Of a stretch of DNA of 64,000 nucleotides, positions 2-60,250 are shown one piece after another. Where the stretch lies: the NCBI GenBank assembly GCA_041661385.1, contig JBAZUP010000002.1, positions 78,670 to 142,669 on the forward strand, read 5' to 3'. The position numbers and the translations under genes are program-made. The first letter of the stretch is position 1, and each line of letters starts with the position of its first letter. Below the pieces are notes generated by a model. The model searched no databases. It saw only the letters and a list, made by a program, of their open reading frames with translations, and was not told where the DNA came from. The DNA comes from Patescibacteria group bacterium. Its GTDB lineage: Bacteria > Patescibacteriota > Patescibacteriia > Magasanikbacterales > GWA2-37-8.

Positions 2-583
2 ATTGTCAGTGAACTGATCTTCGGCAAGACCATTGTTTTTCCGACCGAAACTTCCTATGGTCTTGGGTGTGATGCTACCAATCAGACAGCCGTAAATAAA
101 ATTTATCTCATTAAAGGACGACCGGATAATAAACCTCTGCTCATTGTCGTGCCGAATATTGAAATGGCAAAAAAAATATTAGCATGGAATAAAATTATTG
201 ATAGGCTGGCAGAAAAATATTGGCCCGGCGCGCTCACGATAGTCGGGGAGGCGACTAAGACCGAAAGTTGGGCGACTAATCTTGCGCGCGGAGTGATTTC
301 CGAGGATAATACCGTCGCCGTTCGGGTTACGGCTGATCCGCTTCTAAAATCGATTACCGAAAAATTGGGCCGGCCGCTTGTTGCTACTTCGGCAAATTAT
401 TCTGCCGAAGGAGATAATTATCGGGCCGATGAAGTTATTGAAAATTTTAAAGATAAAGATGCGCGGCCGGATATAATTTTAAATAACGGCGAATTGCCAA
501 AAAATTTACCCAGCACTATTGTCCGGGTTTATAGCGATCGGTTTGTAGTAGTGCGACAGGGAGAAATTAAAATTTCCATATGA
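2..583 (+). CDS. tsaC: L-threonylcarbamoyladenylate synthase, TsaC/YrdC family (5'-partial, continues upstream of window)
   Basis: Reading frame is open from position 2 (IVSELIFGKTIVFPTETSYGLGCDATNQ...). YrdC-like motifs are present: KGRPDNKPLLIVV and ATSANYSAEG. The TGA stop overlaps the next ATG (ATGA). Confidence 0.8.
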   Translation: MVSELIFGKTIVFPTETSYGLGCDATNQTAVNKIYLIKGRPDNKPLLIVVPNIEMAKKILAWNKIIDRLAEKYWPGALTIVGEATKTESWATNLARGVISEDNTVAVRVTADPLLKSITEKLGRPLVATSANYSAEGDNYRADEVIENFKDKDARPDIILNNGELPKNLPSTIVRVYSDRFVVVRQGEIKISI

Positions 584-1722
584 ATCGACGAATCAGCCCA
601 AAATTATTAATATTGTTTCTTTCTCTAGCGACAATTTTTAGTTTTTTTATTATTGCAAAAGCCTGGCAGACCGCGAATGCGGAAATAGATTCAATGTTCT
701 ACCAAATTAGCGAAACACCTACCACAACTGAATTTGGCAGATTGCAAAAACCGGAGAAGCAAACGGTGAAAGGTGTTTACCTCACGGCTTATTCGGCCGG
801 CAGTTCGAAAAAAGTCGGAGAAATTATTGATCTTATAAATCGTACCGAGCTAAATGCGGTGGTGATTGATATTAAAGATTATAGCGGTCTGGTTTTGTTT
901 AATACTAAAAATGCTCTTGCAACTGATTTGCATTTGAAAGATAATCGTTATCCGGATTTAGCAAAGACAGTTAAGCGTTTTCATGATAATAATATTTATG
1001 TAATTGCGCGGCAAACTGTGTTTCAGGATCCGGTCCTTGCTGAAAAAAAACCCGCTTGGGCAATCAAAAAAGTTGGCGGTGGTCTTTGGCGCGATCGCAA
1101 AGGTCTTGCTTGGGTAGACCCAAGCAAAAAAGAAGTTTGGGATTATAATGTCGCGCTCGCAAAAGAAGTGATTGAATATGGGGTCGATGAAATAAATTTT
1201 GACTACATTCGGTTTCCCTCCGACGGCAATATGAAAACCACGGTTTATAGCAACACCAGTACCAAAAAATATAAGGTAATGGGAAATTTTTATAAATATT
1301 TAACAACCAAGCTTGCTGATGAACCGGCTTATCTTTCTTTTGATATGTTTGGATTTGTGATGGAGAAAAAAGGGGAGGACGATATGAATATTGGCCAGCG
1401 TATGGAAGATGCTTTGCCTTACGCGGATTATATTTGCCCGATGATGTACCCTTCTCATTATCCACCCGGTCATCTGAAGCTCGCGAACCCGGCGGCATTT
1501 CCAGCCTTGGTTTTGAACCACGGTCTTACGCTTGGGGCGCCGCGATTCGAAGGTAAAAAAGCCGAATTGCGCCCCTGGATTCAAGCGTTTGATATGGGGG
1601 CAATATATGATGGAGCTAAAATTCGCGCTCAAATCAATGAAGTGGAAAAATTTACTTCGGCCGGTTGGTTGCTCTGGAACGCTTCCAATCGTTATACCGC
1701 CGCCGGTCTGAAAGCAGAATAG
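580..1722 (+). CDS. secreted or membrane-anchored putative glycoside-hydrolase-like TIM-barrel protein (DUF4015/GHL-type)
   Basis: N-terminal hydrophobic segment, then VKGVYLTAYSAGS...LNAVVIDIKDYSG, typical of GH-like DUF4015 proteins. Family assignment is from memory, not searched. Confidence 0.45.
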   Translation: MNRRISPKLLILFLSLATIFSFFIIAKAWQTANAEIDSMFYQISETPTTTEFGRLQKPEKQTVKGVYLTAYSAGSSKKVGEIIDLINRTELNAVVIDIKDYSGLVLFNTKNALATDLHLKDNRYPDLAKTVKRFHDNNIYVIARQTVFQDPVLAEKKPAWAIKKVGGGLWRDRKGLAWVDPSKKEVWDYNVALAKEVIEYGVDEINFDYIRFPSDGNMKTTVYSNTSTKKYKVMGNFYKYLTTKLADEPAYLSFDMFGFVMEKKGEDDMNIGQRMEDALPYADYICPMMYPSHYPPGHLKLANPAAFPALVLNHGLTLGAPRFEGKKAELRPWIQAFDMGAIYDGAKIRAQINEVEKFTSAGWLLWNASNRYTAAGLKAE

Positions 1723-1723
1723 T

Positions 1724-2575
1724 ATGCCTTCTTTATATAGCCACGTCCACATTCAGCACCTCGCTACCAAATACGGTCTTCAACCCGGGCGCACCTATGG
1801 ACAGAATTTTTTGATTGATGAAGAAGTGATACGAAGAATTATCACACTTTCCAATGCTGACCGAACGGATACGATTGTTGAAATTGGTCCGGGGTTTGGC
1901 GTGCTCACGACCGCTCTTGCCGAAGTAACTGGCCGAGTGATTAGTTTTGAAATTGAAAAAAAGTTAAAACCTTATTGGGAAGATATTCAAACAAAATTTC
2001 CAAATATCGAAATTTTGTGGGGTAATGCTTTGAAAACATTTCCGGAAATAGCCAAGGGTCTGCCCGATCATTATAAGGTGGTAGCAAATTTGCCATATCA
2101 AATTACTTCGGCGGCGATTCGAATGTTTCTAGAAGTGCCGCATCCGCCGTCTAAACTTACTTTAATGGTTCAAAAAGAAGTCGGAGAAAGAATTTGCGCG
2201 GCTCCGGGGCAGATGTCGTTGCTTTCGGTGTCGGTACAGTATTATGCCGAACCGCATCTTGAACTTACTGTGCCAAGCAGCGCCTTTTGGCCGCCGCCAA
2301 AAGTTGATTCAGCGGTAGTTACCCTGCGCCGGCGCGAAGGGGTGCGATATTCACCGGAAGATGAACAGTTTTTTGCGGTAGTTAAGGCCGGTTTTGCAGC
2401 TCGGCGCAAACTTCTCATAAAAAACCTGTCTGGGTATGCCGGCAGTAAACACCGTAAAGAATTAATGGAAATTTTTGCTAAACTTAAGCTTCTTCCTACT
2501 GCTCGCGCTCAGGAATTATCGATGCCGACTTGGCGCGAGCTCGCAAAGGAAATAAATATTCTTCGTCAGAATTAA
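1724..2575 (+). CDS. rsmA: 16S rRNA (adenine1518/1519-N6)-dimethyltransferase RsmA/KsgA
   Basis: GQNFL motif, EIGPGFGVLT SAM-binding motif, NLPYQITS. Confidence 0.9.
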   Translation: MPSLYSHVHIQHLATKYGLQPGRTYGQNFLIDEEVIRRIITLSNADRTDTIVEIGPGFGVLTTALAEVTGRVISFEIEKKLKPYWEDIQTKFPNIEILWGNALKTFPEIAKGLPDHYKVVANLPYQITSAAIRMFLEVPHPPSKLTLMVQKEVGERICAAPGQMSLLSVSVQYYAEPHLELTVPSSAFWPPPKVDSAVVTLRRREGVRYSPEDEQFFAVVKAGFAARRKLLIKNLSGYAGSKHRKELMEIFAKLKLLPTARAQELSMPTWRELAKEINILRQN

Positions 2576-2640
2576 TTATCCACTTACGAGCGAAGGGGAT
2601 TTATGCTATACTAACAATCGTATTCTAGCATTTCGCGCTT

Positions 2641-3234
2641 ATGGCGGAAGTACAACCAGTAGCGCCGATTCCGAGGCTAAGCCGTGAGCAGAAAATGGGT
2701 TTTGTTTTCTTGCTCGTTTTTGCTGTCGTCGGATTGGTTTTAGGGATATTGCAAATACGAAATACTTTGTTTGCGCCGTTCGCTCTTTCCAATGTGGTTC
2801 CTGCTTCAGTAAAAGAAAATATAAATGATGTAGAAAAATTACGGTACCGGGATACCGACAACGATGGACTCACTGATTTTGACGAAACTTACAATTATGG
2901 TACTAGCCCATATTTATACGATTCATTTGGCTATGGATTAAGCGATAAAGACGTTATAGAAAAGGGTTTACCACGCTGCGCAAATGCCGGCAAGAATTGC
3001 GCAACCGAAGAAACGGTTATTACGGCGGCAAGCGCCTCGTCTAGCGCTCAGTCAATAATAGGTGAACAGCCAATAGATATAAAAAATATTATAAACGATC
3101 CAAAACAAATTCGGGAAATGCTTTTAAAAAATGGTATGACCAAAGATGTGCTCGATAAGGTAAATGATGCGGAGCTGCTCGTAATGATTCAAGAATTAAT
3201 GGCAAGTACAACCTTATCAACATCTACAAATTAA
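2641..3234 (+). CDS. hypothetical membrane-anchored protein with Asp-rich Ca-binding-like motif
   Basis: N-terminal TM (FVFLLVFAVVGLVLGIL). DTDNDGLTDFDE thrombospondin-type-3/dockerin-like motif. Ends 4 nt before the giant gene. Confidence 0.4.
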   Translation: MAEVQPVAPIPRLSREQKMGFVFLLVFAVVGLVLGILQIRNTLFAPFALSNVVPASVKENINDVEKLRYRDTDNDGLTDFDETYNYGTSPYLYDSFGYGLSDKDVIEKGLPRCANAGKNCATEETVITAASASSSAQSIIGEQPIDIKNIINDPKQIREMLLKNGMTKDVLDKVNDAELLVMIQELMASTTLSTSTN

Positions 3235-3237
3235 TTT

Positions 3238-6200
3238 ATGCGCGATAGGTTTAGAAAATTTTCAAAATTAACGCTAGTGTCGTTATTTTTATTTGTTTTA
3301 GTTTTTGGTGATTTAGTATTAATGAATAGAGTTAATGCGCAGCCGGATGGTTCGGTCGCGGATTTTGCGGCCTTAGATGCAGGAGGGGGTGTTCCGGTAA
3401 CAGATATTGGTGCGTCGGTTTCACGATTGATGTCGAGTATTAAAGCCTTAATTAAATCCGCCTTGATTAGCGGCGGTATTCGAGCGGCTTCATATGCGCT
3501 TCGAAAGGTTGCGTTTGATTCTGCGGTTTGGGTGGCATCTGGTGGCAAAGGTCAAAGTCCGCTTGCACATACTGGAGGATTTGGCGGTTATTTAAAAAAT
3601 GTGGGCGATGAGGCTGCCGGAACTTTTATTTCTGAAATGAGTAGTAAAGCGGGGGTAAACCTTTGTAAAGTGCCGGATATTAAAATTGATTTAGCCATTA
3701 AAGTCGGTCTTCGTACCAGATTTGGCGGCGGACCACCGGCCAAACCAGTCTGTACGCTCAGCCAATTTACAAAAAATTGGAGCAGTGGTGAAGCTTGGAG
3801 CAAATATTCCGATCCAAACAAGCTTGCAAAAAGTTTTAGTTCGAGTATTATCGCCAATGATAGTGATTTAGGTATTTACATCGCGGCCACGGAAAAAATA
3901 AATAATAAAATTATACAACAAAAAGAAGCGGCAACTTTAGATCGACAAGAAGGTGATGGTATTAAATCTCTAAATACCCTGATTGGAGATCAGATAAAAA
4001 CTCCCGCTGCTCTTGTAAAAAAAACAGTCGAAGGTCTTGATCCGGCAGAAACCCTTAAAAAAAATGAGGCCTTGTTAAACTCCGCTTTAGCAGGTGGTGA
4101 TGCCAAGGTTTTTCCGGCAGTATTAAGTATTTTTCTTAGTACTTTAGGCGGTACAATTCTTAATAATTTTCAAACAAAAGGTATTTTGCCAACCGGTATG
4201 TGTGCCGGGGGTATTGGCGGACCTGGTTGTAGTAATGGTTCCGGGTCTTATAATAACCCGCTCTTTAACGAAAGCGGGGAGGGTCTTACTTCACTTGGCC
4301 GGGCAGCGGCAAAAAGTTTTTTTAATTATTTAACAGCGGTTAAAATCAAGGAAGTCAATCGCTATGATTTGGCTTCACAGCTTAACAGCTGTCCGGATTC
4401 GCCGGGTATTTATAATTGCCGCGCGGGAGATGATTTAACAAATGCAATCGATCAAAAAATTACTATTGAAGACGCGATAAAACTGGGTATACTCGATGGC
4501 AACAAAAAATTAATTCCGGATGATGTTAAAACTCGTTCAATAAGCAATGATTTGAATTGTTATTTAAGCGCTTATTGTTTGAATAATGTAAAAGTTTTAA
4601 GACAGCTCAGAATTTTACCGCTAGGTTTTGAAATTGCGATTTCACGTTCTAATCCTAATGATTTATCCACGCTAAAAAGCGTGGTTGATGCGTTTAACGA
4701 TAAAAATTCCTCTTTTTATCATCTTATTGATCCGCGCTGGGTGATAAAAGCTCCCGAAGCAAAGTGTAATGCGTTGGTAAATAGCGCCAGTTTGCTTGGA
4801 GCAGATCTGCCAGCTCGTCTTCAAGATTGTGTTGATTTGCAAACCTGTGTCGGTTACGACAACAACGGTAATTGTATCGATTATGGATATTGTACTCGTG
4901 AACAAAATACATGGAAATTTCCCGCCGATAAATGTTCGGAGCAATTTGCGACTTGCGCGGTATTCCAAAATTCAAAAGGAAATTCTGTAGGTTATATCAA
5001 ACGCACCCTCGACAGCGCTTACTGCACCCAAAGTAATGATGGCTGTACCGCTTATAGTCTTTCAAGAAATTCACTCAATCAGTGGGTCGCTCCGCAATTT
5101 CCAGCGACAGCCAGCGCGAACGCCGGAATATTTTTAAACTCTAAAGCTGAAACAGATTGTTCGGCGAATTCGGCCGGGTGTTCAATTTTTAAAATTGCTT
5201 CCGCGAATTCCAATGATTATTTGAATATTAAAAAAGCACCAGATTATTTAGGGTGTTACGATAGTAACCCTGCAACTCCAGCCATAGACTGGCCGCAAAC
5301 AGCTATTGATCTCGGCCGGCTTTCCACCAATTCAGAATGTAATAATTATGCAAAAGCTTGTACAGCCGATGAAGCCAGTTGTAATTGGTATACTCCGAAA
5401 AATGGCGGTATCAAATTGCCGGGCCGATTTGTTCCGGCCGTTGTTACGACTTCTTCCGTAATTTGGAATGATCAATGTGACGCCCGTTGCGAGGGGTATA
5501 ATGTTTACCGCGAAATGCCAAGTAATTATTCCAATGGTCAGGATCTTGCTTATATAATTCCTTCTTCCGGCAAAACTTGTGTTGCGGAAGACGAGGGTTG
5601 CTCTAGCTTTACGAATCTGAGCACTGCTGTCGGCGGGGTAGAAAATACCGAATATTATTCTTATCTCCGGCCTTGTATTACCATGTCCGAAGCGACCAGC
5701 ACAGTCGCAAAGACCTTTATTACTTATGAAGGTTCCAAAGAAAATGGTTTTCAACTTCATACTTATTTAATGTTGTTTAACCAAGGCACAACGGACGTTC
5801 CACAAAACGGACCAGCTGGCTCGCCAAAATATTTTTATAAAGATCCGGCCGAACTTGCCTCGTTAAATAATGAATGTACCGAGCAAAGATATAAAGACGG
5901 TGTCGCATCGCTTGATTGTCGCCAGTTCAATGACAAAGACGGCAATATTTATTACCGAATGATTTCGCATACGATACCCGCGAATGAAAAATGTACCGGT
6001 TATCGTTTGAACGACCCGGAATTTTATGTTGATGCAACGATTGTAACGCCCGATGCCTGTCAAACTCGACTGGGTAATTGGACCAATTCTGGCGGTGCGA
6101 ATGTTTGTGAAATGTGTGTTCAAAATGGTGAATACCGTAATGGCGCCTGTATCTATTCTGGAATACCAACCGGCGTTCAAAATCCGGCCGGTGTCAGTCG

Positions 6201-36752: not shown

Positions 36753-37117
36753 ATGAATGAATAAATATTAGATAATTTAGTTATTTTTATAATAATACTG
36801 TTAAAAAGTATTAGTAAATTATTATAGCAAAAATTATTATCGCTGTCATTTTCGCTGATATCCTTACTATACGTATTTGGCACCCAAAAGGTTTCAAGGC
36901 AAAAAAGCCGTTATTCCTGTTTGAGCTATTCACAATCAATTTACCTTGACAACCCTAAGGATTGTGGATATAATTAGGCACATGAAATTGAACTGCGCAA
37001 ACAATTTGAATAATAACAATAATAATACCTAGCGCAGGTATAGTTTTTCATGAAGCTATACCCGCTACTAAGCGGGTTTTTAAATAGCACAAGACTTATA
37101 GTTGGTAAGCAGTATAT

Positions 37118-37192
37118 TCCGGGATAGTTGAGTGGTACAACGCCACGCTGTTAACGTGGATATCCTAGGTTCGAATCCTAGTCCCGGAGCCA
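37118..37192 (+). tRNA. tRNA-Asn (GTT), CCA encoded
   Basis: Acceptor tccggga/tcccgga, anticodon stem ccacg/cgtgg with loop ctGTTaa, T-arm ctagg-ttcgaat-cctag. Its 3' end overlaps the recombinase stop region. Confidence 0.85.
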
Positions 37193-38677
37193 AGTAGGAT
37201 AAAGGGTTTTTTCGGCGAAAATACGCCAGCCCCTTTTGGCCAAGAATTCAAATTTTTTGCCTTTCACCGTAAAGTTCGAGCCGACATTTTTTAGAAAGGT
37301 ACGAATTTCATTGAGATCGCCTGCACGGGCGATTTTTTTGGCTTCACAACTGGATAAAATAAATTCCCTCATCGGTTCGAGCCAATTAGCGCCCTTGTTA
37401 TTAATTTCTTTCAATTTGCCTTCAGCTACCATTTTTTGATTCAGCAGTTTTTCTTTCTTTGTCAAATAATCGGCTTTATCTATTGTGCTGTCAAGATGCG
37501 AATCGAGCAATTTATCCATTTTTCCCTTTATTGCCGTTATTTGGCCTTCTAAGGCAACTACAAGGGCGCTGGATGCTTGTTTATTTGATTCCGCATCATT
37601 ATCTAGTTTAGCAAGCATCTGCTCGCCCAGGTCATCAGGTAAAGAAACTTTTTGCAAAACCTCTTTCAGCTGTTCGGCCAGCGCTTCTTCACGAATATAT
37701 TTTTCCTCGCATGTTCCTATTTTCTTGGTACAGCGATAGTACACATGACCCTTTTGTCTTTCAGCCGTTATATAGCAACCACACGAACCACATTTCATCA
37801 AACTGCAAAAAATATATTCGTGTTTCTTAATTTTGTGGGGCCGACCACGGTTTTGCATTATTGTTTGCACTTCGTCAAAAAGTTTCTTGGTAATCATTGG
37901 CTCGTGTTTTCCCTCGTGCAATTCGCCGTTGTATTTAAACACGCCAGAGTAAAAAGGATTTTTGAGAATTGATTGAAGTACGCTTACTGATAGTTTACTA
38001 TTGCTTTGGGTGCGTAGTCCTAAATCATTAAATTTTTCCGCAAGGACTTTTAAAGGATATTCACCAGTCGCGTACAATTCAAAAATCCTTTTTACAAGTT
38101 TATGCTTTGTCTTATCAATAAACATGGTGTGGTTTTTGAGATCATTCAAATACCCAAACGGCGCGCGGCCAGGGCATTCACCTCGGCGCAATTTTTGGCG
38201 CAAACCCCGTTTTACATTCTCGGAAAGATTATCAATGAAATATTTACTCTGGCCGAAAGCAATATTAAGCATAAACTTGCCTTGGGGCGTGTTTTCGAAC
38301 CAAAAAGTCGGAAATTTGAGGGAATTTATTTTTCCGGTGTCCACCAGGTAAATTATTTGTCCGCCGTCGATTGGATTACGAGCCAAACGATCAGGATGCC
38401 AAGCCAAAATGCCGTCGGCCTTTCCGCTATTGATAATTCGTAACATTTCACCGAACACAGTTCGGCCAGGCTGTTTGGCAGTTTTTGCCTCGCAAAGCGA
38501 GGTGACGATTTCAAGTTTTTCCTTTACGGCAAATTCTTTTAACTCGGCCAGTTGTGCGTCAATCGATAATACTTGTCGCTCTTCCTCGTCGGTCGATTTA
38601 CGAGCGTACAAAATGTATTTGGCCATACGATTATCAATTATATTTAGAAAAGTTTGTTTTTGGCGTCGTGCGACCAC
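37178..38677 (-). CDS. large serine recombinase (resolvase catalytic domain + recombinase domain + zinc ribbon + coiled coil)
   Basis: YARKSTDEEERQ...SIDAQ resolvase-type catalytic N-terminus (likely true start MAKYILYARKST, about 38626). CGSCG...C zinc ribbon. C-terminal coiled coil. Confidence 0.85.
   Translation of the reverse strand: MVARRQKQTFLNIIDNRMAKYILYARKSTDEEERQVLSIDAQLAELKEFAVKEKLEIVTSLCEAKTAKQPGRTVFGEMLRIINSGKADGILAWHPDRLARNPIDGGQIIYLVDTGKINSLKFPTFWFENTPQGKFMLNIAFGQSKYFIDNLSENVKRGLRQKLRRGECPGRAPFGYLNDLKNHTMFIDKTKHKLVKRIFELYATGEYPLKVLAEKFNDLGLRTQSNSKLSVSVLQSILKNPFYSGVFKYNGELHEGKHEPMITKKLFDEVQTIMQNRGRPHKIKKHEYIFCSLMKCGSCGCYITAERQKGHVYYRCTKKIGTCEEKYIREEALAEQLKEVLQKVSLPDDLGEQMLAKLDNDAESNKQASSALVVALEGQITAIKGKMDKLLDSHLDSTIDKADYLTKKEKLLNQKMVAEGKLKEINNKGANWLEPMREFILSSCEAKKIARAGDLNEIRTFLKNVGSNFTVKGKKFEFLAKRGWRIFAEKTLYPTWLRD
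37187..37263. repeat. IR-A left copy (77 bp). It includes the tRNA-Asn 3' end and the recombinase 3' end.
   Basis: Reverse complement matches 38681-38757 (gagccaagtaggataaagggttttttcggcgaaaatacgccagccccttttggccaagaattcaaattttttgcctt). Confidence 0.8.
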
Positions 38678-38680
38678 GAC

Positions 38681-38757
38681 AAGGCAAAAAATTTGAATTC
38701 TTGGCCAAAAGGGGCTGGCGTATTTTCGCCGAAAAAACCCTTTATCCTACTTGGCTC
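38681..38757. repeat. IR-A right copy (inverted), just upstream of the recombinase start
   Basis: Reverse complement of 37187-37263. Explains the shared peptide KKFEFLAKRGWRIFAEKTLYPTWL in two track ORFs. Confidence 0.8.
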
Positions 38758-38853
38758 GGAATGTACGAAAGAATACGAACGGAATTTACGGAATAGGGCG
38801 AGCGGAAGGAGGGGTTTGGGGAGGAATTCCGCCCGCCCACTGGCGCGCTTTTT
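38754..38853. repeat. IR-B left copy (100 bp)
   Basis: Reverse complement matches 44089-44188 with one mismatch (gctcggaatgtacgaaagaatacgaacggaatttacggaatagggcgagcggaaggaggggtttggggaggaattccgcccgcccac...). Confidence 0.8.
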
Positions 38854-38992
38854 AAAAACTGCCAAACAGCCTGAAAAAATGTCGGCTCAAACTTTACGGT
38901 GGCCAAAAGCAAACTTTTCTTTTCTCTGCGCTTGCCCCACCCGCCCGTTGCGCGCGCAGCGGGGTAGGAACTCCCTTTATAAATACTGAATA

Positions 38993-41242
38993 CTACACGT
39001 CAAATATAATATTCTCCTGCGCTTTGGCGTAAATATCAAGTCTATTTTTTAAATCGATTCTATTGACCAACCAACCCTGTAATTCGCACTGGTGGATAAA
39101 ATCATTAATTCTATTAATACCATATATTTCTTTTAGGGTTACCACGAGGCCAAACTTAATACCATCTCCATCTCTCGTGCCAAGTCTTTCTTTTGTTTTA
39201 ACACTTATCCCCCACATGCTATTATCATATGCTTTCCTAGGTAATAATTTTTCGCCAAATGTTTCCTGTATGTGTTTAGTATTGTCCCACTTGCGAAAAA
39301 ATTTTCTTGCGTCACCCTCATACATATAATGTGACTCGCCGTCGTCAACGCTTTGAGTGTTTCTGTTTATTGTCTTAATACCTTTTGTGTGAACCCTTCC
39401 AAGATACACATCCAGTTCGGTATTGGTATAATCTACTCCTTGGTTTATCGAACATTTGGGAAAATAACAGAGTGTAGCTTTTGCTACAAAGGGATATTTT
39501 TTATCATCAATAGGAACAGGAAGTTTGTAGTTGTATGTGTCATACATCTCTGAAACACCATTGATAATAAACCTTATCTCGTCATCGGGTGATTTAATTA
39601 TATCTTCTATGCGTTTCGGTACTATTCCATGGCCAATTAGTGCTGCAAGTCTTTGGTCGCACGCTTTATTACTCCATCCGGAAGCAGAATCCACAATTAA
39701 GGCTTTGGCTGTCTCTCTACTAAGACCCAAGACCTCGATTAGATATGCAACTTTTCTAGTTATCCAAGGTGCCGCAAAAGAAGTTCCCGTGCGAAGACCT
39801 TCACCGTTTGGTTCGCAAACTCGAATAAAATCTTCAGTAATCATATCACCCCCATAGCTACAGACATCTGGCTTGTTAAAAAATGACAAAACCAGCCCTT
39901 TTCTAGAATAAGAGGCGGGTGTATTTGTGCTGTTTACAGAATTGACCACTATCGAGTTTATGGAATCTGCTGGAGCGCCTATTCTTCTTTCGGTCTTAGG
40001 GTCTCTATTGTTGGTTCCCGCGATAATAAAAATTATATCTTTTTCGTATTGAATTTTGTCGAGTATGGCAGCTTCTGGCGATATTGAATTCAGGTTAATT
40101 TCGTTATCTGATCCCAAAGACAAGTTCCACACTTTAATGTCAGGGTTTGCTTCAACAATTTCTTCTATTAATTTCATAATTGTGAAGGCGCTGTACTGAC
40201 CCTTGGCTGCAACGCCAAAGTGCCGTACCTTAAACCTACCACAACCATCGTCGAGATCGGGGTTAATAACCGGTCCGTCCACAATAATAGAACTTATTGC
40301 CGTTCCGTGTTCATAGTCCTTTTGATCAAGTGGAATTTCATCATCGATCATTTTTTTGAATTTAACCCACTCAGAAAAATAAACCCTCGTATCAAACATG
40401 GTATCAATAACACCTATAGTTGGTTCATTATTTGGAGAATCAATAATATGACTATTTTTCTGGACCGTCTCGCTCAAAACATCATCATAACTTAATTTGG
40501 ATATATCCTCCGTTGCCATCGCTATAAGGTAAGGGGCTTTTTCCGTTAGGATTGTGATTTGAGGTGGCCTTAAGAGCATGGTGGTGTCACTGATCACTCT
40601 TTCTTCGGGGACATCAATGCCAATTTTTTGTAAAATTGTAATTGCATCAGCACTAGTTTTATAAATAGTTATAATTGATTGATTCTTTGTATTGATTCTG
40701 TTATCTGGAATTCCGAACCCTTCTACATAGTGCGAATCCGCAATAATATTGCAAAACGTTGATCGAGTAAGTCCATACTTATTAAATTCTATACCAAAAC
40801 TTCCAAGCTTTTCGAGCCCGTCAGCATCAATACTTCCTTTGAACTCGATGTTAAGTAATATGATACTTTTACTTAATTTTTCGATTGTATCATCAATTAT
40901 ATCGCCATGAACAAAATGAGTAATGATGTGTTTTTTTTCTCGGTCGCTGTCTGAGAATCTTGCGCCAACAACTGTGCTATTTGCGTGCATTTGACCTTTA
41001 GAAAAAAAGCCACTGATTCTATTACTTTTCGCCACAACGGTCGTGTACCTAACATCAATAAGGGCCCCACCAAGAACCTTCTCTTTTTTCCAATATTCTC
41101 CAAGTTGTTCCAGCCCCACTGACAGCGTCGTCAAATATTTAGATGTTACAGGAGGTGCGTTTTTTGGAATATTGCGAAATCCCGGCCTGTTTTTACTTGG
41201 CCGCTGCTGAAAGGAACCTTTTAACTGAAGTAGGTCATTCAT
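38993..41242 (-). CDS. S8-family subtilisin-like serine protease with N- and C-terminal extra domains (IetS-like)
   Basis: Catalytic triad contexts: IGVIDTMFD (Asp), HGTAISSII (His), GTSFAAPWITR (Ser). 749 aa, no signal peptide. Follows the AAA ATPase with a 3-nt gap. Confidence 0.8.
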   Translation of the reverse strand: MNDLLQLKGSFQQRPSKNRPGFRNIPKNAPPVTSKYLTTLSVGLEQLGEYWKKEKVLGGALIDVRYTTVVAKSNRISGFFSKGQMHANSTVVGARFSDSDREKKHIITHFVHGDIIDDTIEKLSKSIILLNIEFKGSIDADGLEKLGSFGIEFNKYGLTRSTFCNIIADSHYVEGFGIPDNRINTKNQSIITIYKTSADAITILQKIGIDVPEERVISDTTMLLRPPQITILTEKAPYLIAMATEDISKLSYDDVLSETVQKNSHIIDSPNNEPTIGVIDTMFDTRVYFSEWVKFKKMIDDEIPLDQKDYEHGTAISSIIVDGPVINPDLDDGCGRFKVRHFGVAAKGQYSAFTIMKLIEEIVEANPDIKVWNLSLGSDNEINLNSISPEAAILDKIQYEKDIIFIIAGTNNRDPKTERRIGAPADSINSIVVNSVNSTNTPASYSRKGLVLSFFNKPDVCSYGGDMITEDFIRVCEPNGEGLRTGTSFAAPWITRKVAYLIEVLGLSRETAKALIVDSASGWSNKACDQRLAALIGHGIVPKRIEDIIKSPDDEIRFIINGVSEMYDTYNYKLPVPIDDKKYPFVAKATLCYFPKCSINQGVDYTNTELDVYLGRVHTKGIKTINRNTQSVDDGESHYMYEGDARKFFRKWDNTKHIQETFGEKLLPRKAYDNSMWGISVKTKERLGTRDGDGIKFGLVVTLKEIYGINRINDFIHQCELQGWLVNRIDLKNRLDIYAKAQENIIFDV

Positions 41243-41245
41243 AAA

Positions 41246-42283
41246 CTACCCCCTAAGATCTCGTGATATCTGACTTTTTGATATTCCTGTGAGCATCTCC
41301 ATATCCCTAACAGAGAAGCCCTCCCTTTGTAAGTATTTTAAATCCGTTTTCTTATTCTTTGAATCGATAGATTCGTACAATTTTTTTAGATAGTCGAACT
41401 CATTGTTTGGATCACTAAATGCGAGCGAGGTTTTTATAATATTTTTTAGCTCACCGGGGTATGGCATTTCATCCATTAATGAAATAATTTTTTTAAACAA
41501 TCGCATATTGCGACCTGCAAATTTAAACTTTACTAAAAAATCATTAAGTATTGATTCAGCAACTTCAATTAAGTCGTTTCGACTGTATCTATTGAAGTTA
41601 ATGGTGGAATCGAATCTTCTGACTAATGCTTTATCAAATTTAATATAAAGGTTAGTCGTGGCAATAAGGATGGTACTAGCACTTAGACTGTCTAAACCCT
41701 TTAGCACCGACGATGTTACACGTCCCATTTCCCGTAAGTCGTTGGAATTTATCCTATCAAGAGCAATTGCATCTATTTCGTCAAAAAGTACGATCATCTT
41801 TTCTGGGTGGGGAAGTTCTTTTAGCTCTTTAAAGATAGTAACAATATTTTTTGATGTTTGACCAAGTTTGCTATCAATAACATTTTCAAAATCAACTGCA
41901 AACAACTCCCGCTCAAGTATTCTAGCTACTTGCTTGGCGGTCTCAGTCTTTCCTGTCCCAGGCTCGCCCTCAAACAAAAACTTATTTATTCCCGCGTTAT
42001 GACCTATTGAATTAATAATCCCTAAAATATCATTCTTGATTGGGGTGGGAAGTGGAAGAGCGCCTCCTGACAGACTTATTTTGGTCAAAAAAGGAAAATT
42101 TTGTTCGTTGTCTTGTGGTACGAATGTATTCGTGCCGGATAATAGCGCCATTATATATTCAGCAAGCTGCTGGTCGCCGTTTGCGTCAAAATATCGAGCT
42201 ATACTATAAGCTTCATTTCTAAAAGCCCCATCGTTTTTTTCTGCGTGATATTTTATTAAATTTAATATATTTTTTTTTCGCAT
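41246..42283 (-). CDS. AAA+ ATPase (IetA-like)
   Basis: Walker A GEPGTGKT, Walker B IVLFDEID, second region of homology ALVRRFD. Confidence 0.8.
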   Translation of the reverse strand: MRKKNILNLIKYHAEKNDGAFRNEAYSIARYFDANGDQQLAEYIMALLSGTNTFVPQDNEQNFPFLTKISLSGGALPLPTPIKNDILGIINSIGHNAGINKFLFEGEPGTGKTETAKQVARILERELFAVDFENVIDSKLGQTSKNIVTIFKELKELPHPEKMIVLFDEIDAIALDRINSNDLREMGRVTSSVLKGLDSLSASTILIATTNLYIKFDKALVRRFDSTINFNRYSRNDLIEVAESILNDFLVKFKFAGRNMRLFKKIISLMDEMPYPGELKNIIKTSLAFSDPNNEFDYLKKLYESIDSKNKKTDLKYLQREGFSVRDMEMLTGISKSQISRDLRG

Positions 42284-42536
42284 ATTTTCCTTTTATTTTT
42301 ATTCTAACACACCAGGGACGCATTTACAAGAAAATGGGACACAAACATAAAATCGACTACATTTCGCGAATAAGATAGGGCTTTTGACTTATTGTTTATT
42401 TCGGCGTATAATTATGCGACCACATTTTGGAGAAAGCGGTTTGTTAAGCAAAATATTGTTAATAAACCGAGTTTCCTAAAAAGAAACTCCTTTGTGCAAT
42501 GATGCATGAAGCCGAAACGAAGAAAGGGAAACACCA

Positions 42537-43475
42537 ATGCACCGTTCACTGTTGTTTGTTGTTCTCTTCATCACGGCCGTCGCAGTCGGCTGTGGTCGGC
42601 AGGGTTCGCCGGATGTGGCACAGGACCTTGGTGGCGCAAGCGCCTTCAAGGCTGTGCAGAATCTCAACCCCGGCCTCACCATCTACAAGGCATCCGGAGG
42701 CGAGCTCCGCGGAAGCTATCGCGCCAACAACAGCGCGATCCACTTCCAAGCCTTGCGCGGAGAGAATCTTGTGCTCGGCGTCAACACGGTCGATCCGGAT
42801 GCTCCCGCCTACGCCGTTTCCGTCCGGATCATCGACCAGGAAGGAAACCCTGTTGCGATCGCCATCGGCGATAGCGATGAAAGGATTTCCGCCTGGCAGG
42901 AGAAAGTGGAGGGACTCGGCACGGGTTCCAACCCCGACCTCAGTGAAACCTTCGTGCTCGCGCAGGAGGCCACAGATGTCCTGTCCCAGACCGTGACGAG
43001 CGGATTCGACGAGGAGATCAAGACCTTGAAGCGACGCAGCTTCACAGCTGCACCCGTCGCAAACGCACCCGGCCAGTCGAGCAAGATGCAGGCGCTTTCC
43101 TCGACGTGGAGGTACTGGCTCCGGATGTTCCGGAAGGATGCCAACTTCAACGGCAACTTCGCCGATCACTCCGCCGTCATCGTGAATGTGACCAAGCCAG
43201 ACGGAACGATCCTGAACTACGTCACCTGCAACCACGGTACCTGCGCGGACGATCCGTCCATGCAGTTCCGGTGTCAGAACACGGTCTACCCGGCAAGCCA
43301 GCGTCCGTTCGCGATCTTGCCGTGCGATTCGGTTTCTTCCTATGGCTTCTTCTCGGGCCAACACGTCTGCAACGATGATACTCTGGTGCAAGTCAACATG
43401 GTCGTGTACGGCAATAGCAGTCTCACGACCTGCACCGACTCGTCGTTGCGCCTCTGGGCACCTTCTTGCAGCTAG
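42537..43475 (+). CDS. GC-rich islet: secreted lipoprotein (312 aa)
   Basis: Lipobox LFITAVAVGCG, SD gaaagggaaa upstream. GC-rich block 42480-43545. 15-bp perfect hairpin gatgtcggcgctcgc...gcgagcgccgacatc after the stop. The minus-strand 310-aa Arg-rich ORF is an antisense artefact. Confidence 0.55.
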   Translation: MHRSLLFVVLFITAVAVGCGRQGSPDVAQDLGGASAFKAVQNLNPGLTIYKASGGELRGSYRANNSAIHFQALRGENLVLGVNTVDPDAPAYAVSVRIIDQEGNPVAIAIGDSDERISAWQEKVEGLGTGSNPDLSETFVLAQEATDVLSQTVTSGFDEEIKTLKRRSFTAAPVANAPGQSSKMQALSSTWRYWLRMFRKDANFNGNFADHSAVIVNVTKPDGTILNYVTCNHGTCADDPSMQFRCQNTVYPASQRPFAILPCDSVSSYGFFSGQHVCNDDTLVQVNMVVYGNSSLTTCTDSSLRLWAPSCS

Positions 43476-43609
43476 CAAGTCGGCCTAACCAGTAGGCGAT
43501 CACAAAGGATGTCGGCGCTCGCTCCTCGCGAGCGCCGACATCGCAACTTTTACACATATTTGTTATAATACCCACATATTTATAATAATACTTATTTATA
43601 ATAATACTT

Positions 43610-44047
43610 ATGAAAAATATTATATTATCTCCAGTGCCCTTTAAAAAAATAATTACTATTTTTTTTGCTGGCTTAGTTGGTGCCTTGATATTTGGCTTAC
43701 TATTTGGTTTGGTCGGTTTATTGTTTGCCAACAATCTCGGGTTTAAGGTCGCTATTGGTTCAGAAGAATTAACTATGGGAGCAAGCGCGATATTTTACTG
43801 TCTTCTTAGTACGCCTTTTGGCGCAATGTTTGGTGTTTGGATTGCCTCTAAGATGGCAGGTTATAAATCTAATTATTTGTATTATTTTTTAACGACTTTA
43901 TTTTTAGTTGTTATTGGTCTATTTTTTAGAGACTATTTTAATTTGTTTGCATTTGTGGCATATGCCGCTGTCTGTTCAATTACCCTAACAGCTGTAATTA
44001 ATTATTTTGCTAAAATTAAATCGCAAAATGTATCTACTCAGAAGTAA
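43610..44047 (+). CDS. small polytopic membrane protein
   Basis: Four hydrophobic helices, AT-rich native composition. Lies inside the IR-B-bounded segment. Confidence 0.5.
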   Translation: MKNIILSPVPFKKIITIFFAGLVGALIFGLLFGLVGLLFANNLGFKVAIGSEELTMGASAIFYCLLSTPFGAMFGVWIASKMAGYKSNYLYYFLTTLFLVVIGLFFRDYFNLFAFVAYAAVCSITLTAVINYFAKIKSQNVSTQK

Positions 44048-44088
44048 TAATTTTGTAAGTCTAGTTAAAGGAAAAACTTGAAATCGTC

Positions 44089-44188
44089 AAAAAGCGCGCC
44101 GGTGGGCGGGCGGAATTCCTCCCCAAACCCCTCCTTCCGCTCGCCCTATTCCGTAAATTCCGTTCGTATTCTTTCGTACATTCCGAGC
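44089..44188. repeat. IR-B right copy (inverted)
   Basis: Reverse complement of 38754-38853. Confidence 0.8.
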
Positions 44189-44214
44189 AAATACAAAAAA
44201 GCACCCTAAAATGG

Positions 44215-44357
44215 GTGTTTTTTTGTATTTTGTTTTGCGTCTGGATTCGAACGGAAGATGGTAATAAACGAAGTTTCTTACTTGCCGAGGAAAGTCCACG
44301 AAAACCCGAAGGTTGTCGTGAGAGAGAACGAAGTGAGCGCATTCGAATAGCCAAGCG
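44215..44357 (+). repeat. tRNA-3'-adjacent structured element, copy C (next to the tRNA-Asn 3'-end repeat)
   Basis: Inverted T-loop copy ctggattcgaacgg (44241-44254). Core cttgccgaggaaagtccacgaaaacccgaaggttgtcgtgagagagaacgaagtgagcg (44281-44339) is about 95% identical to 60165-60232. Followed by cctagtcccggagc. Confidence 0.6.
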
Positions 44358-44371
44358 CCTAGTCCCGGAGC
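44358..44371 (+). repeat. direct repeat of the tRNA-Asn 3' end (putative attR core)
   Basis: cctagtcccggagc is identical to 37177-37190. A degenerate third copy tctagtcctggggc sits near 44685. A hairpin terminator follows at 44372-44404. Confidence 0.6.
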
Positions 44372-44759
44372 ATAATAAATAAGCACACCATAATGGTGTG
44401 CTTATTTATTATGATTCAAAGGTTGGATTCGTTTTATTTTATAATATTGCTATAATTAACGTATAATGAAAGTCAAATTATGAAAAAATACCATAGACGA
44501 ATACTATATTCTATTTTCGCAATAGTATTTGGTGTGTTTATGTTTATATATGGTGGGTACGATGACAGTCCGGGTGGGCAAGGATTGGGGCTATTACTAA
44601 TTATTATTGGTATTGTTGGATTAGTAAAAAACAAAAAAATATCTTCGTAAAGCTAGTAAAATGAGCACGTTTGAATAGTGAAGCGTCTAGTCCTGGGGCT
44701 AATAAAAATATTGACAAAGTGCTAATTTAGTGCTATTTATAAGACAAGGAGGCAAAATC

Positions 44760-57299: not shown

Positions 57300-58862
<1,563 letters not shown>

Positions 58863-60085: not shown

Positions 60086-60250
60086 CATAAATAAAAATTC
60101 CCAACAGGGGATTTTTTATTTATGTTAGCCTGTGAATCGAACGGGAAAGGGAGAAAACGGGAGTTTTCTCTTGCCGAGGAAAGTCCACGAAAACCCGAAG
60201 GTTTTCGTGAGAGCGAACGAAGTGAGCGAGTGAGATTCCGCACGCCCACA
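60086..60250 (+). repeat. tRNA-3'-adjacent structured element, copy B (after tRNA-Ile)
   Basis: Terminator-like hairpin. Inverted T-loop copy cctgtgaatcgaacggg. Hairpin gagaaaac-ggga-gttttctc. Core cttgccgaggaaagtccacgaaaacccgaaggttttcgtgagagcgaacgaagtgagcg. Partial direct copy of the tRNA-Ile 3' end, gattccgcacgcccaca. Confidence 0.6.

Follow-up and report, generated by a model that had tools for sequence, protein, structure and literature searches.

A large serine recombinase element with abutting inverted-repeat modules at a patescibacterial tRNA-Asn gene, and the family to which it belongs

Introduction

The Patescibacteria (candidate phyla radiation, CPR) have tiny genomes with few recognised mobile elements, and one locus in a member of the Magasanikbacterales raises the question of what kind of element can be carried there. 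The locus lies in a 64,000-nt stretch of contig JBAZUP010000002.1 (assembly GCA_041661385.1, positions 78,670 to 142,669), hereafter the window. Here, a gene for a large serine recombinase (LSR) runs into the 3′ end of tRNA-Asn(GTT) and is followed by a second segment carrying cargo genes, each of the two being framed by its own inverted repeat. The original prediction, made from the bare sequence, took this for an invertible or excisable recombinase cassette joined to a separately mobilisable cargo. Our analysis revealed that the region is a genuine mobile element integrated at the 3′ end of tRNA-Asn and a member of a large Patescibacteria family of two-module serine-recombinase elements. We consider it probable that the whole is an integrated two-module unit run by the LSR, and that this large family is specific to Patescibacteria.

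Recombinase gene, tRNA-Asn and inverted repeats

The recombinase open reading frame (ORF) spans 499 aa on the minus strand (37178–38677), and its stop codon (37178–37180) lies within the tRNA-Asn gene called by both ARAGORN and Rfam, as had been predicted. The true start is probably the ATG at 38626, giving a protein of 482 aa with the N-terminus MAKYILYARKST. Pfam analysis revealed a Resolvase catalytic domain (PF00239, E = 1.8e-19, residues 5–150, with the motif YARKST near the N-terminus) and, C-terminal to it, Recombinase (PF07508, E = 1.7e-16) and Zn_ribbon_recom (PF13408, E = 5.7e-08) domains. The protein is a bona fide LSR, in agreement with the proposal that such an enzyme drives the element. 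Its nearest solved structure is the A118/LI integrase, of which the C-terminal domain was matched (E about 4e-8), and no LSR in the phage and plasmid collections searched reached 31 % identity to it. Viral contigs returned just two matches to the recombinase, both truncated, and exact-protein look-ups found the full-length, intact protein on record in no other assembly. A search for a second recombinase copy within the window found none. The sole recombinase is of the serine type, in contrast to the tyrosine integrase that adjoins the tRNA in a phage-type tRNA island, and the view that this is not a standard island of that type was upheld.

Two pairs of long inverted repeats organise the region (Table 1). 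The first pair, the 'a' arms, comprises 77 nt at 100 % complementarity (repeat finder; BLASTn E = 3.6e-35) and brackets the recombinase gene, the left copy holding the terminal bases of the tRNA and the last 25 recombinase codons. The second pair, the X arms, comprises 103 nt at 98 % identity (repeat finder and BLASTn), within which BLASTn aligned 100 nt at 99 % (E = 2.7e-46). These repeats are far above chance expectation, and all had been anticipated in position; their recovery by both tools removes the concern that they might not be reproducible by alignment. The idea that the second pair is unrelated to the first did not stand, as both are arms of one attachment-type site and meet at a common core. 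More precisely, the two pairs overlap at GCTC/GAGC, a 4-nt core common to four sites (S1–S4), and across the family they abut at a core of 4–8 nt equal to the last bases of a tRNA gene. The resulting order is tRNA, core, 'a' arm, recombinase, inverted 'a' arm, core, X arm, cargo, inverted X arm, core and terminator. We refer to the LSR gene and the cargo, each bracketed by its own near-perfect repeat, as modules G and C, respectively.

The final two bases (CA) of the tRNA gene are supplied by the element. The terminator directly after the S3 core is probably the former terminator of tRNA-Asn (the B′ side). Within the recombinase ORF, and antisense to it, lies a terminator-like hairpin that probably substitutes for this displaced terminator; close relatives have equivalent hairpins whose stems vary in sequence.

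Table 1. Coordinates of features of the element and its immediate flank (positions in the window)
Feature	Position	Strand	Comment
tRNA-Asn(GTT)	37118–37192	+	T-loop GTTCGA at 37169–37174 and 3′ end form the putative B half-site (geometry)
LSR gene	37178–38626	-	Pfam PF00239, PF07508, PF13408
S1 core GAGC	37187–37190	+	tRNA, core, 'a' arm; candidate attL
'a' arm, left copy	37187–37263	+	Putative P′ half-site and antisense of the last 25 recombinase codons; 77-nt inverted repeat
Piece Bq	37265–37292	-	Contains GCTCGAAC; copy at 38874–38901; in 85 loci, median identity 100 %
Terminator-like hairpin and T-run	37313–37343	+ (tRNA sense)	Antisense within recombinase ORF; terminator scan
Piece U	38467–38486	-	Copy at 38854–38873; in 70 loci, median identity 100 %
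Hairpin pal2, 16 nt	38487–38502	-	Within ORF, codons about 42–47, exactly between V and U
Piece V	38503–38526	-	Copy at 44066–44089; in 65 loci, median identity 100 %
Piece F (5′ untranslated region, UTR)	38646–38664	-	Copy at 38902–38920; in 72 loci, median identity 98.3 %
Palindrome pal1, gtcgtgcgaccacgac, 16 nt	38665–38680		Between F and inverted 'a' arm; read from window sequence
'a' arm, right, inverted copy	38681–38757	+	Repeat finder, BLASTn
X arm, proximal copy	38751–38853	+	Outer end is the putative P half-site; T-loop-like ACGAAC at 38775–38780
S2 core GAGC	38754–38757	-	X arm, core, 'a' arm, inverted; attP-like, between recombinase and cargo modules
Mosaic of U, Bq and F	38854–38920	+	Three abutting exact copies, proximal end of cargo module
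IetS (S8 protease)	38993–41242	-	PADLOC IetS, PDLC02196/PDLC02197 pair, E = 4.6e-63; Pfam Peptidase_S8
IetA (AAA ATPase)	41246–42283	-	PADLOC E = 2.4e-42
Lipoprotein gene, ~60 % GC	42537–43475	+	No Pfam or PADLOC family match
Small membrane protein gene	43610–44047	+	No family match
V copy	44066–44089	+	Distal end of cargo module, abuts X arm
X arm, distal copy	44089–44191	+	T-loop-like GTTCGT at 44162–44167
S3 core GAGC	44185–44188	+	X arm, core, terminator; candidate true attR
Strong terminator t	44189–44230	+	Directly after S3 core; terminator scan
Older relic	44220–44371	+	~120-nt motif and 14-nt tRNA-Asn 3′-end copy (S4); paralogue after tRNA-Ile at 60112–60250
S4 core GAGC	44368–44371		Relic, core, native flank
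Native-looking terminator hairpin	44371–44413	+	After S4; inverted repeat I7

A conserved layout in a large family of Patescibacteria

Relatives of the recombinase number at least 532 in GTDB species representatives and at least 558 in JGI metagenomes; nearly all of the relatives listed are Patescibacteria, and the closest among the matches listed share 81 % (GTDB) and 71 % (JGI) aa identity. Comparing 160 loci, each with itself, revealed that the layout, including the positions of the arms relative to the gene, recurs in more than 100 independently assembled relatives with 52–81 % aa identity (individual loci are designated below by L numbers). The 'a' arms were found in 132 loci (42–159 nt) and the X arms in 61 (median 100 nt), with a median within-locus identity of 99.1 % in each case. 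Between related loci, the same arms are just 78–96 % identical, and this combination of high identity within a locus and divergence between loci indicates that the copies evolve in concert within each element. The outer end of the distal X arm marks the limit of homology among related elements.

In a second clade, both abutting repeat pairs and the three-site logic are likewise present, but the short gene-piece mosaic and the ORF hairpin described below are missing. Its member L023 has X arms of 330 nt at 100 % identity and 'a' arms of 183 nt.

The conservation of the layout also decides a technical question. As 77 is a default SPAdes k value, and as relatives' contigs often break at these repeats, the 77-nt repeat might mark a mis-joined graph path rather than a biological structure. 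However, the same layout occurs with arms of 42–159 nt in many projects and with many assemblers, including the complete genome L048, and is present in loci with imperfect arms; moreover, two other assemblies of the same species match the window base for base across the region. We rejected an assembly artefact on account of this conservation across assemblers and the varied arm lengths, and consider it extremely improbable.

A full-text literature search, limited in extent, found no description of this architecture, and the family is apparently undescribed. That the element is a serine-integrase integrative element places it in known territory; what appears new is a conserved architecture that the standard serine-integrase mechanism does not explain, together with a putative rule for targeting tRNA genes at large.

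Attachment-site geometry and the choice of tRNA genes

The four sites S1–S4 have only GAGC in common. The crossover would fall within this core, and symmetry arguments centre it at GA[GC]CA, which is probably its exact position.

In serine integrases, the zinc-ribbon motif lies 5 bp nearer the centre in attB than in attP (PMC3783163). We aligned S1 and S2 at their point of divergence and measured the offset of comparable motifs from there. The tRNA T-loop TCGAAC was found at 12 nt and the conserved NCGAAC of the X arm at 17 nt; relative to GAGC in the window, GTTCGA (37169) stands at 18 nt, and both GTTCGT (44162) and the inverted ACGAAC (38775–38780) stand at 23 nt. Across the family, the T-loop-like motif of the X arm is displaced by exactly +5 nt relative to the tRNA T-loop in 73/84 loci, and a stricter classification returned the combination (B, P) in 71/98. 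Because this shift matches the serine-integrase rule, we infer that the 3′ end of the tRNA is the B half-site, the outer end of X is P and the start of the 'a' arm is P′. With the half-sites so assigned, S1 would be attL, S3 attR and S2 a complete inverted attP. The S1-type core logic repeats in L041 and L023.

This geometry suggests how the enzyme might choose its target. The zinc-ribbon domain of the LSR would read the universal T-loop of tRNA genes, so that the 3′ end of a tRNA serves as the B half-site of attB. The outer ~30 nt of the X arm would provide the P half-site of attP, with a T-loop mimic moved 5 bp outward, and P′ would come from the beginning of the 'a' arm, a stretch that codes for the C-terminal tail of the LSR itself. 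As only the T-loop and a short core would be read, many tRNAs should be usable by the family. Relatives were found next to at least 13 different tRNA species (Trp, Gln, Ser, Leu, Asn, Gly, Met, Ile, Arg, Lys, Tyr, Ala and Thr), and a convergent tRNA abuts or overlaps the 3′ end of the recombinase gene in 26 of the 36 loci scanned. Recombinase genes with 85–88 % nucleotide identity occupy different tRNAs that end in the same hexamer, TGGTGG being common to L041 (Leu) and L067 (Ala) and TGGTGC to L047 (Leu) and L063 (Gly).

The far boundary and an older relic

A 14-nt direct repeat (CCTAGTCCCGGAGC) of the tRNA-Asn 3′ end, found at 37177–37190 and again at 44358–44371, had been noted previously and taken for the far boundary of the element. 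The repeat is present as predicted, but it is probably not the boundary: S3 has the correct geometry and is followed by a terminator, while the flank of S4 carries its T-loop-like motif at +9 rather than +5. The two boundaries predict different empty sites. Excision by S1 x S3 would leave the junction ...GTCCCGGAGC/AAATACAAAAAAGC, whereas a boundary at the 14-nt repeat would leave ...GGAGC/ATAATAAATAAGC.

What the repeat most likely marks is an older relic. The stretch 44220–44339 is 83 % identical to 60112–60228, downstream of tRNA-Ile, a similarity overlooked in the original prediction. Both belong to a unit of ~150–170 nt that occurs twice in the window, at 44189–44371 after S3 and, alone, at 60087–60250 after tRNA-Ile. 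A terminator, a ~120-nt motif and a partial 3′ copy of the adjacent tRNA make up each unit, the copied bases being those of its own tRNA. Because the unit occurs by itself at tRNA-Ile, the 14-nt repeat is best attributed to the relic and not to the end of the present element. The ~120-nt motif holds the hairpin CACGAAAACC-CGAA-GGTTKTCGTG and the string GAGGAAAGTCC; it had no Rfam match and no BLASTn match in the related loci. Possible identities for the unit are a small element that targets tRNA ends and a scar left by excision. A degenerate third copy of the tRNA-Asn 3′ end (TCTAGTCCTGGGGC) is present at 44686–44699 (within 44414–44710) and looks like the remnant of a still older insertion at the same tRNA. 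The sequence before 44686 resembles that before 44358, with a small membrane ORF in between.

These observations bear on a simpler explanation, in which the region is an ordinary tRNA island bounded by the 14-nt repeat and its inverted repeats are incidental or stem from a decayed second, inverted copy. Such an island would account for the 14-nt repeat and the native-looking terminator that follows, for the tandem and degenerate copies of such elements at relatives' tRNA sites, and for the cyclic U-Bq-F...V order of short pieces in the cargo module (see below), which is that of the gene and resembles a heavily deleted second copy. It would not account for the same boundaries and 99–100 % within-locus identity over more than 100 loci with up to 48 % divergence among their genes, nor for the absence of +5 geometry from the flank at 44358 or the solitary ~170-nt relic at tRNA-Ile. 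Moreover, only 7/25 loci contain, upstream, a direct repeat of the tRNA 3′ end of 10 nt or more, and only about three have one just beyond the distal X arm, the expected position; we rejected such a repeat as a general far boundary. This rarity, and the end of inter-element homology at the distal X arm, further disfavour a boundary at 44358. We regard the ordinary island as very unlikely.

Copies of recombinase-gene pieces and a hairpin in the ORF

Repeat-finder and BLASTn searches uncovered a feature that the original prediction had missed, namely exact inverted copies of pieces of the recombinase gene that abut the long repeats without spacers (Table 1). Median piece lengths in relatives are 20 nt (U), 28 nt (V), 27 nt (Bq) and 26 nt (F). 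The full set (F, U, V, X, a and b) was recovered in 44 loci; most of the remaining loci are truncated at contig ends, and these are concentrated at the repeats. Read in the sense of the gene, the recombinase module runs F-g0-V-hairpin-U-g2-Bq, where g0 and g2 are the gene stretches between pieces, and the cargo module runs U-Bq/F-cargo-V, the cyclic order being the same in both. The inner flanks of the X arm (U and V) are fused inside the gene, and those of the 'a' arm (Bq and F) inside the cargo module.

The hairpin between V and U, pal2, displays 95 % Watson–Crick pairing over 47 distinct sequences in register, compared with 8–31 % in shifted registers. Compensatory changes, with at least two pair types, affect 4/7 pairs and entail coordinated amino-acid changes (LC, FQ, FH and FT), and the clade that lacks the mosaic also lacks pal2. 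This covariation indicates selection on the hairpin at the level of the nucleic acid.

One explanation for these features is control at the RNA level. A leader read through from the cargo would carry the antisense segments rcF, rcBq, rcU and rcAq, which would pair with the 5′ UTR, coding region and 3′ end of the recombinase mRNA and silence it, the ORF hairpin forming the junction between the V and U pairings. In keeping with this, complementarity between the pieces is exact and no spacers separate them, F spans the 5′ UTR up to -3 in several loci, the compensatory changes in pal2 are typical of a single-stranded fold, and each set of pieces together with the small hairpin would make a perfect four-way junction on paper; a scan of the window also revealed no strong promoter between the cargo and the recombinase gene. 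However, the pairings would be mutually pseudoknotted over helices of 20–100 bp, and, on the sense strand, G-U-compatible changes are not enriched among the mismatches that distinguish the copies, of which many are transversions or indels. In L091 the pieces are direct and still 100 % identical, though the long arms have decayed, while the second clade keeps the long arms and has neither mosaic nor hairpin. The X and 'a' arms, furthermore, exhibit the geometry of serine-integrase attachment sites. RNA-level control is unlikely on this evidence. A search of the mosaic, X arms and relic for known RNA families (Rfam) returned only sub-threshold noise.

Most likely, the short copies and the ORF hairpin are further cis-acting DNA sites, perhaps acting in synapsis. 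Recombination by the LSR between the V-pal2-U site of the gene and the inner ends of X was also considered and was rejected because the putative central bases mismatch. A bolder proposal is that these elements represent a new class, in which an LSR has extra cis-sites in its own gene (the V/U hairpin and Bq/F) that are mirrored at the ends of the cargo, together with an internal inverted attP; we hold this to be conceivable but doubtful. If true, it would give these elements something unlike any known serine integrase, for example control of excision and integration by flipping of module G, independent of any factor, or integron-like exchange of single genes, and this would be combined with near-universal tRNA targeting through the T-loop mimic.

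The boundary between the hairpin and U also coincides with a break in an assembly. An independent MEGAHIT assembly of the same species (ERZ27249449) breaks the recombinase gene exactly at this boundary (38486/38487), its contigs L081 and L083 ending at 38486 and 38487 with a 2-nt overlap (CA) and no foreign sequence. Inversion heterogeneity of U/rcU and insertion of a repeat were rejected as causes, given the clean contig ends and the 2-nt overlap; k-mer repeats likewise fail to account for the break. At another position, after residue ~118–122 (between QGKF and MLNI), the recombinase genes of the relatives L085 (1–420), L086 (1–430) and L071 (97–724) have a cut or interruption in common. In L085 and L086, both from IMG/VR, unrelated DNA of a viral-classed contig follows the cut, and L086 has the Bq/F junction directly upstream of the start codon in the sense orientation.

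A variable cargo, often of defence genes

The four enclosed genes were confirmed as an S8 protease, an AAA ATPase, a GC-rich lipoprotein and a small membrane protein. The first two lie 3 nt apart on the same strand and match the PADLOC models PDLC02196 and PDLC02197, which identifies them as an IetAS pair with a putative anti-phage role; the likeness to IetAS lies in the adjacent genes for an IetA-like ATPase and an IetS-like protease. The lipoprotein gene (~60 % GC, compared with ~38 % for the genome) is also present in two other assemblies (L083 and L084), and it is therefore real foreign cargo and not a chimera.

The segment between the X arms is non-homologous among close relatives of the recombinase and has a median length of 1041 nt (range 580–4999) in relatives, the 5235 nt of the window being the largest. 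Cargo is mostly a single gene of about 1 kb, and 92 cargo ORFs fell into 76 clusters. Among them are a LexA-like (S24 peptidase) domain fused to an Eco57I-type methylase, GmrSD with HNH, an EcoRI methylase, Mrr, a NucS-like nuclease, a CfrBI endonuclease, T5orf172, a radical-SAM enzyme and an FAD oxidoreductase. The cargo is variable and often consists of defence genes, those of restriction-modification among them. No replication genes were recognised in the cargo of the window or in the 10 cargo ORFs scanned from relatives.

Variation in the X arms and the mosaic follows that of the recombinase gene and not of the cargo, non-homology beginning 20–70 nt inside the pieces. For the prediction that the cargo is separately mobilisable as an inverted-repeat-bounded unit we found no evidence, as the X arms co-evolve with the recombinase. 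The same observation bears on serial insertion, whereby the modules would be separate circles with a palindromic site (arm, core, inverted arm) that were added one after another at the tRNA-proximal site, as in an integron, S2 being a hybrid cassette junction. Several loci would fit such a history. In L018, L044, L078 and L121 the 3′ arm of the gene abuts a second P-type arm (T-loop mimic at +5) and no tRNA, and in L078 further small segments bounded by inverted repeats follow it; with L125, these loci show two different P-type arms or further inverted-repeat-bounded segments. The usual single-gene cargo of about 1 kb also fits, as does the fact that the junction at which one module is 'opened' is intact in its partner (V.U in the recombinase gene, Bq.F in the cargo module). 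Nevertheless, arms that vary with the recombinase rather than the cargo speak against serial insertion, no free circle was seen among the 167 loci, and a perfect palindrome of 200 bp would be unstable. We judge serial insertion distinctly unlikely.

Orientation, excision and a proposed mechanism

Two relatives contain a flipped module and lend support to the predicted inversion. In L091 the cargo module is in the opposite orientation (Xd-U-Bq-F-cargo-V-Xp, all direct), with the short pieces still 100 % identical; the X arms of this locus are just 86 % identical, so the flip is not a choice of the assembler. In L125 it is the recombinase module that is flipped, with a tRNA-Leu upstream and co-directional with the gene.

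Returning to the two-module integrated element that we favour, S2 would be a complete inverted copy of attP kept inside the element after integration. We speculate that the mobile form would be a circle of two unique segments separated by two inverted, attP-bearing repeats, integrated via one of the copies, and that the modules could subsequently invert, either through the LSR at its inverted sites or by homologous recombination across the arms. In the usual orientation, the LSR gene would be convergent with the tRNA, lie behind the antisense-embedded terminator and be silent. A flip of module G would place it directly behind the tRNA and its promoter, the 'a' arm and the small palindrome being all that intervenes. 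Flipping of this kind would give a rare, stochastic ON state and explain why one orientation dominates in assemblies.

Several observations weigh against this reading. Recombination of an internal attP with attL or attR is not expected of a canonical LSR, and S2 is beyond the standard model in this respect. The P′ and B′ halves lack a clear mirror-image T-loop motif, so that the attachment-site assignment draws on one half per site. The conserved backbone (-315 to the end of the gene, plus the distal X arm) leaves no space for a further ORF that could encode a directionality factor, and the cargo ORFs fall into 76 unrelated clusters; such a factor may be host-encoded or unrecognised. The loci with a second P-type arm suggest that real elements can be longer chains of more than two modules. 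With regard to inversion, the arms of L125 are 99 % identical and its flip could be a choice of the assembler; one orientation dominates, about 1 in 50–100 loci being flipped, which fits an inversion that is rare or strongly selected and not a free flip-flop. Excision as a circle, the other part of the predicted mobility, was not borne out, as no circular contig was present among the 167 loci. Nor did the comparison with related genomes reveal an empty site, whether in the GTDB and JGI scans or in exact-protein look-ups: the two same-species assemblies carry the insert unchanged and in the same arrangement, and beyond them none of the matches listed is closer than 81 % aa identity.

Relationship to known systems

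Phage-type LSRs (Listeria A118/LI, phiC31, Bxb1 and SPbeta SprA) have the same three domains, and the 5-bp shift that is their hallmark is seen here in one pair of half-sites. The elements described here, however, are aimed at many different tRNAs, at their 3′ end and T-loop, and not at one gene, the ORF crosses the crossover site, and gene and cargo are each framed by inverted repeats of 75–160 nt. In addition, a putative inverted attP is retained after integration and the conserved backbone shows no directionality factor.

Tycheposons, DNA-invertase switches of the Hin type, the layout of the yeast 2-micron plasmid and integrons are conceptually nearest, each sharing one feature and failing in others. 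In most tycheposons of Prochlorococcus the recombinase is of the tyrosine type, and the elements lie between direct repeats of part of the tRNA; in the paper describing them, 'inverted repeat' occurs in the reference list alone and no self-copy mosaic is described (bioRxiv 10.1101/2020.12.28.424599). They resemble the present family as small cargo elements at tRNA genes of streamlined genomes, with tandem or degenerate copies at the same tRNA and adaptive or defensive cargo. Here, however, a direct tRNA repeat is the exception and the recombinase is of the serine type.

In the DNA-invertase switches (Hin, Gin, Cin and PinQ), a serine recombinase gene likewise lies inside a segment bounded by inverted repeats. 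A cis-acting enhancer is located within the 5′ coding region of hin and gin, and by analogy its position is about that of V-pal2-U here (nt 88–159). The invertases are nonetheless small proteins with a C-terminal helix-turn-helix, 26-bp sites and a Fis-dependent enhancer, whereas the enzyme in the window is an integrative LSR of 482 aa with arms of 77 and 103 nt (75–160 nt in the family). The yeast 2-micron plasmid (Flp/FRT) consists of two unique segments with a pair of long inverted repeats between them; these hold the target of the recombinase, which is encoded in one segment, and the plasmid exists as orientation isomers. It differs in that Flp is a tyrosine recombinase and the plasmid is autonomous and flips for copy-number amplification, while the present element is chromosomal, with no replication genes or circle found. 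Integrons, finally, gather diverse and mostly single-gene cassettes (median about 1 kb) beside a site-specific recombinase and have hairpins conserved in structure and variable in sequence. They rely on the tyrosine integrase IntI, attI and a single-stranded attC hairpin per cassette, unlike the present family, in which a serine recombinase is usually accompanied by one cargo segment, the hairpin lies within the recombinase ORF and the flanks of the cargo co-evolve with the recombinase. No attC-like repeated hairpins flanking the cargo were found in the window.

The features outside the standard serine-integrase model are the putative internal inverted attP, the repeats that are identical within an element, the self-copy mosaic and the covarying ORF hairpin. 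If the T-loop is indeed read and mimicked 5 bp further out in attP, attP and attB would become predictable for hundreds of uncharacterised serine integrases. This suggests integrases with a natural landing pad in every genome, which would be of interest for genome engineering. The family occurs in hundreds of species and its cargo is mostly a single gene, often anti-phage; it could be one of the main routes by which accessory genes move in the CPR.

Other features of the window

Elsewhere in the window, a 16S rRNA gene (57300–58860) is followed by tRNA-Val and tRNA-Ile genes; 23S rRNA was not detected in the remaining 3.9 kb. Upstream of tRNA-Asn, at a distance of ~145 nt, there is a perfect promoter-like site on the plus strand (TTGACA-17-TATAAT, 36946–36974), and a terminator-like hairpin (37060–37077) is positioned between this site and the tRNA gene.

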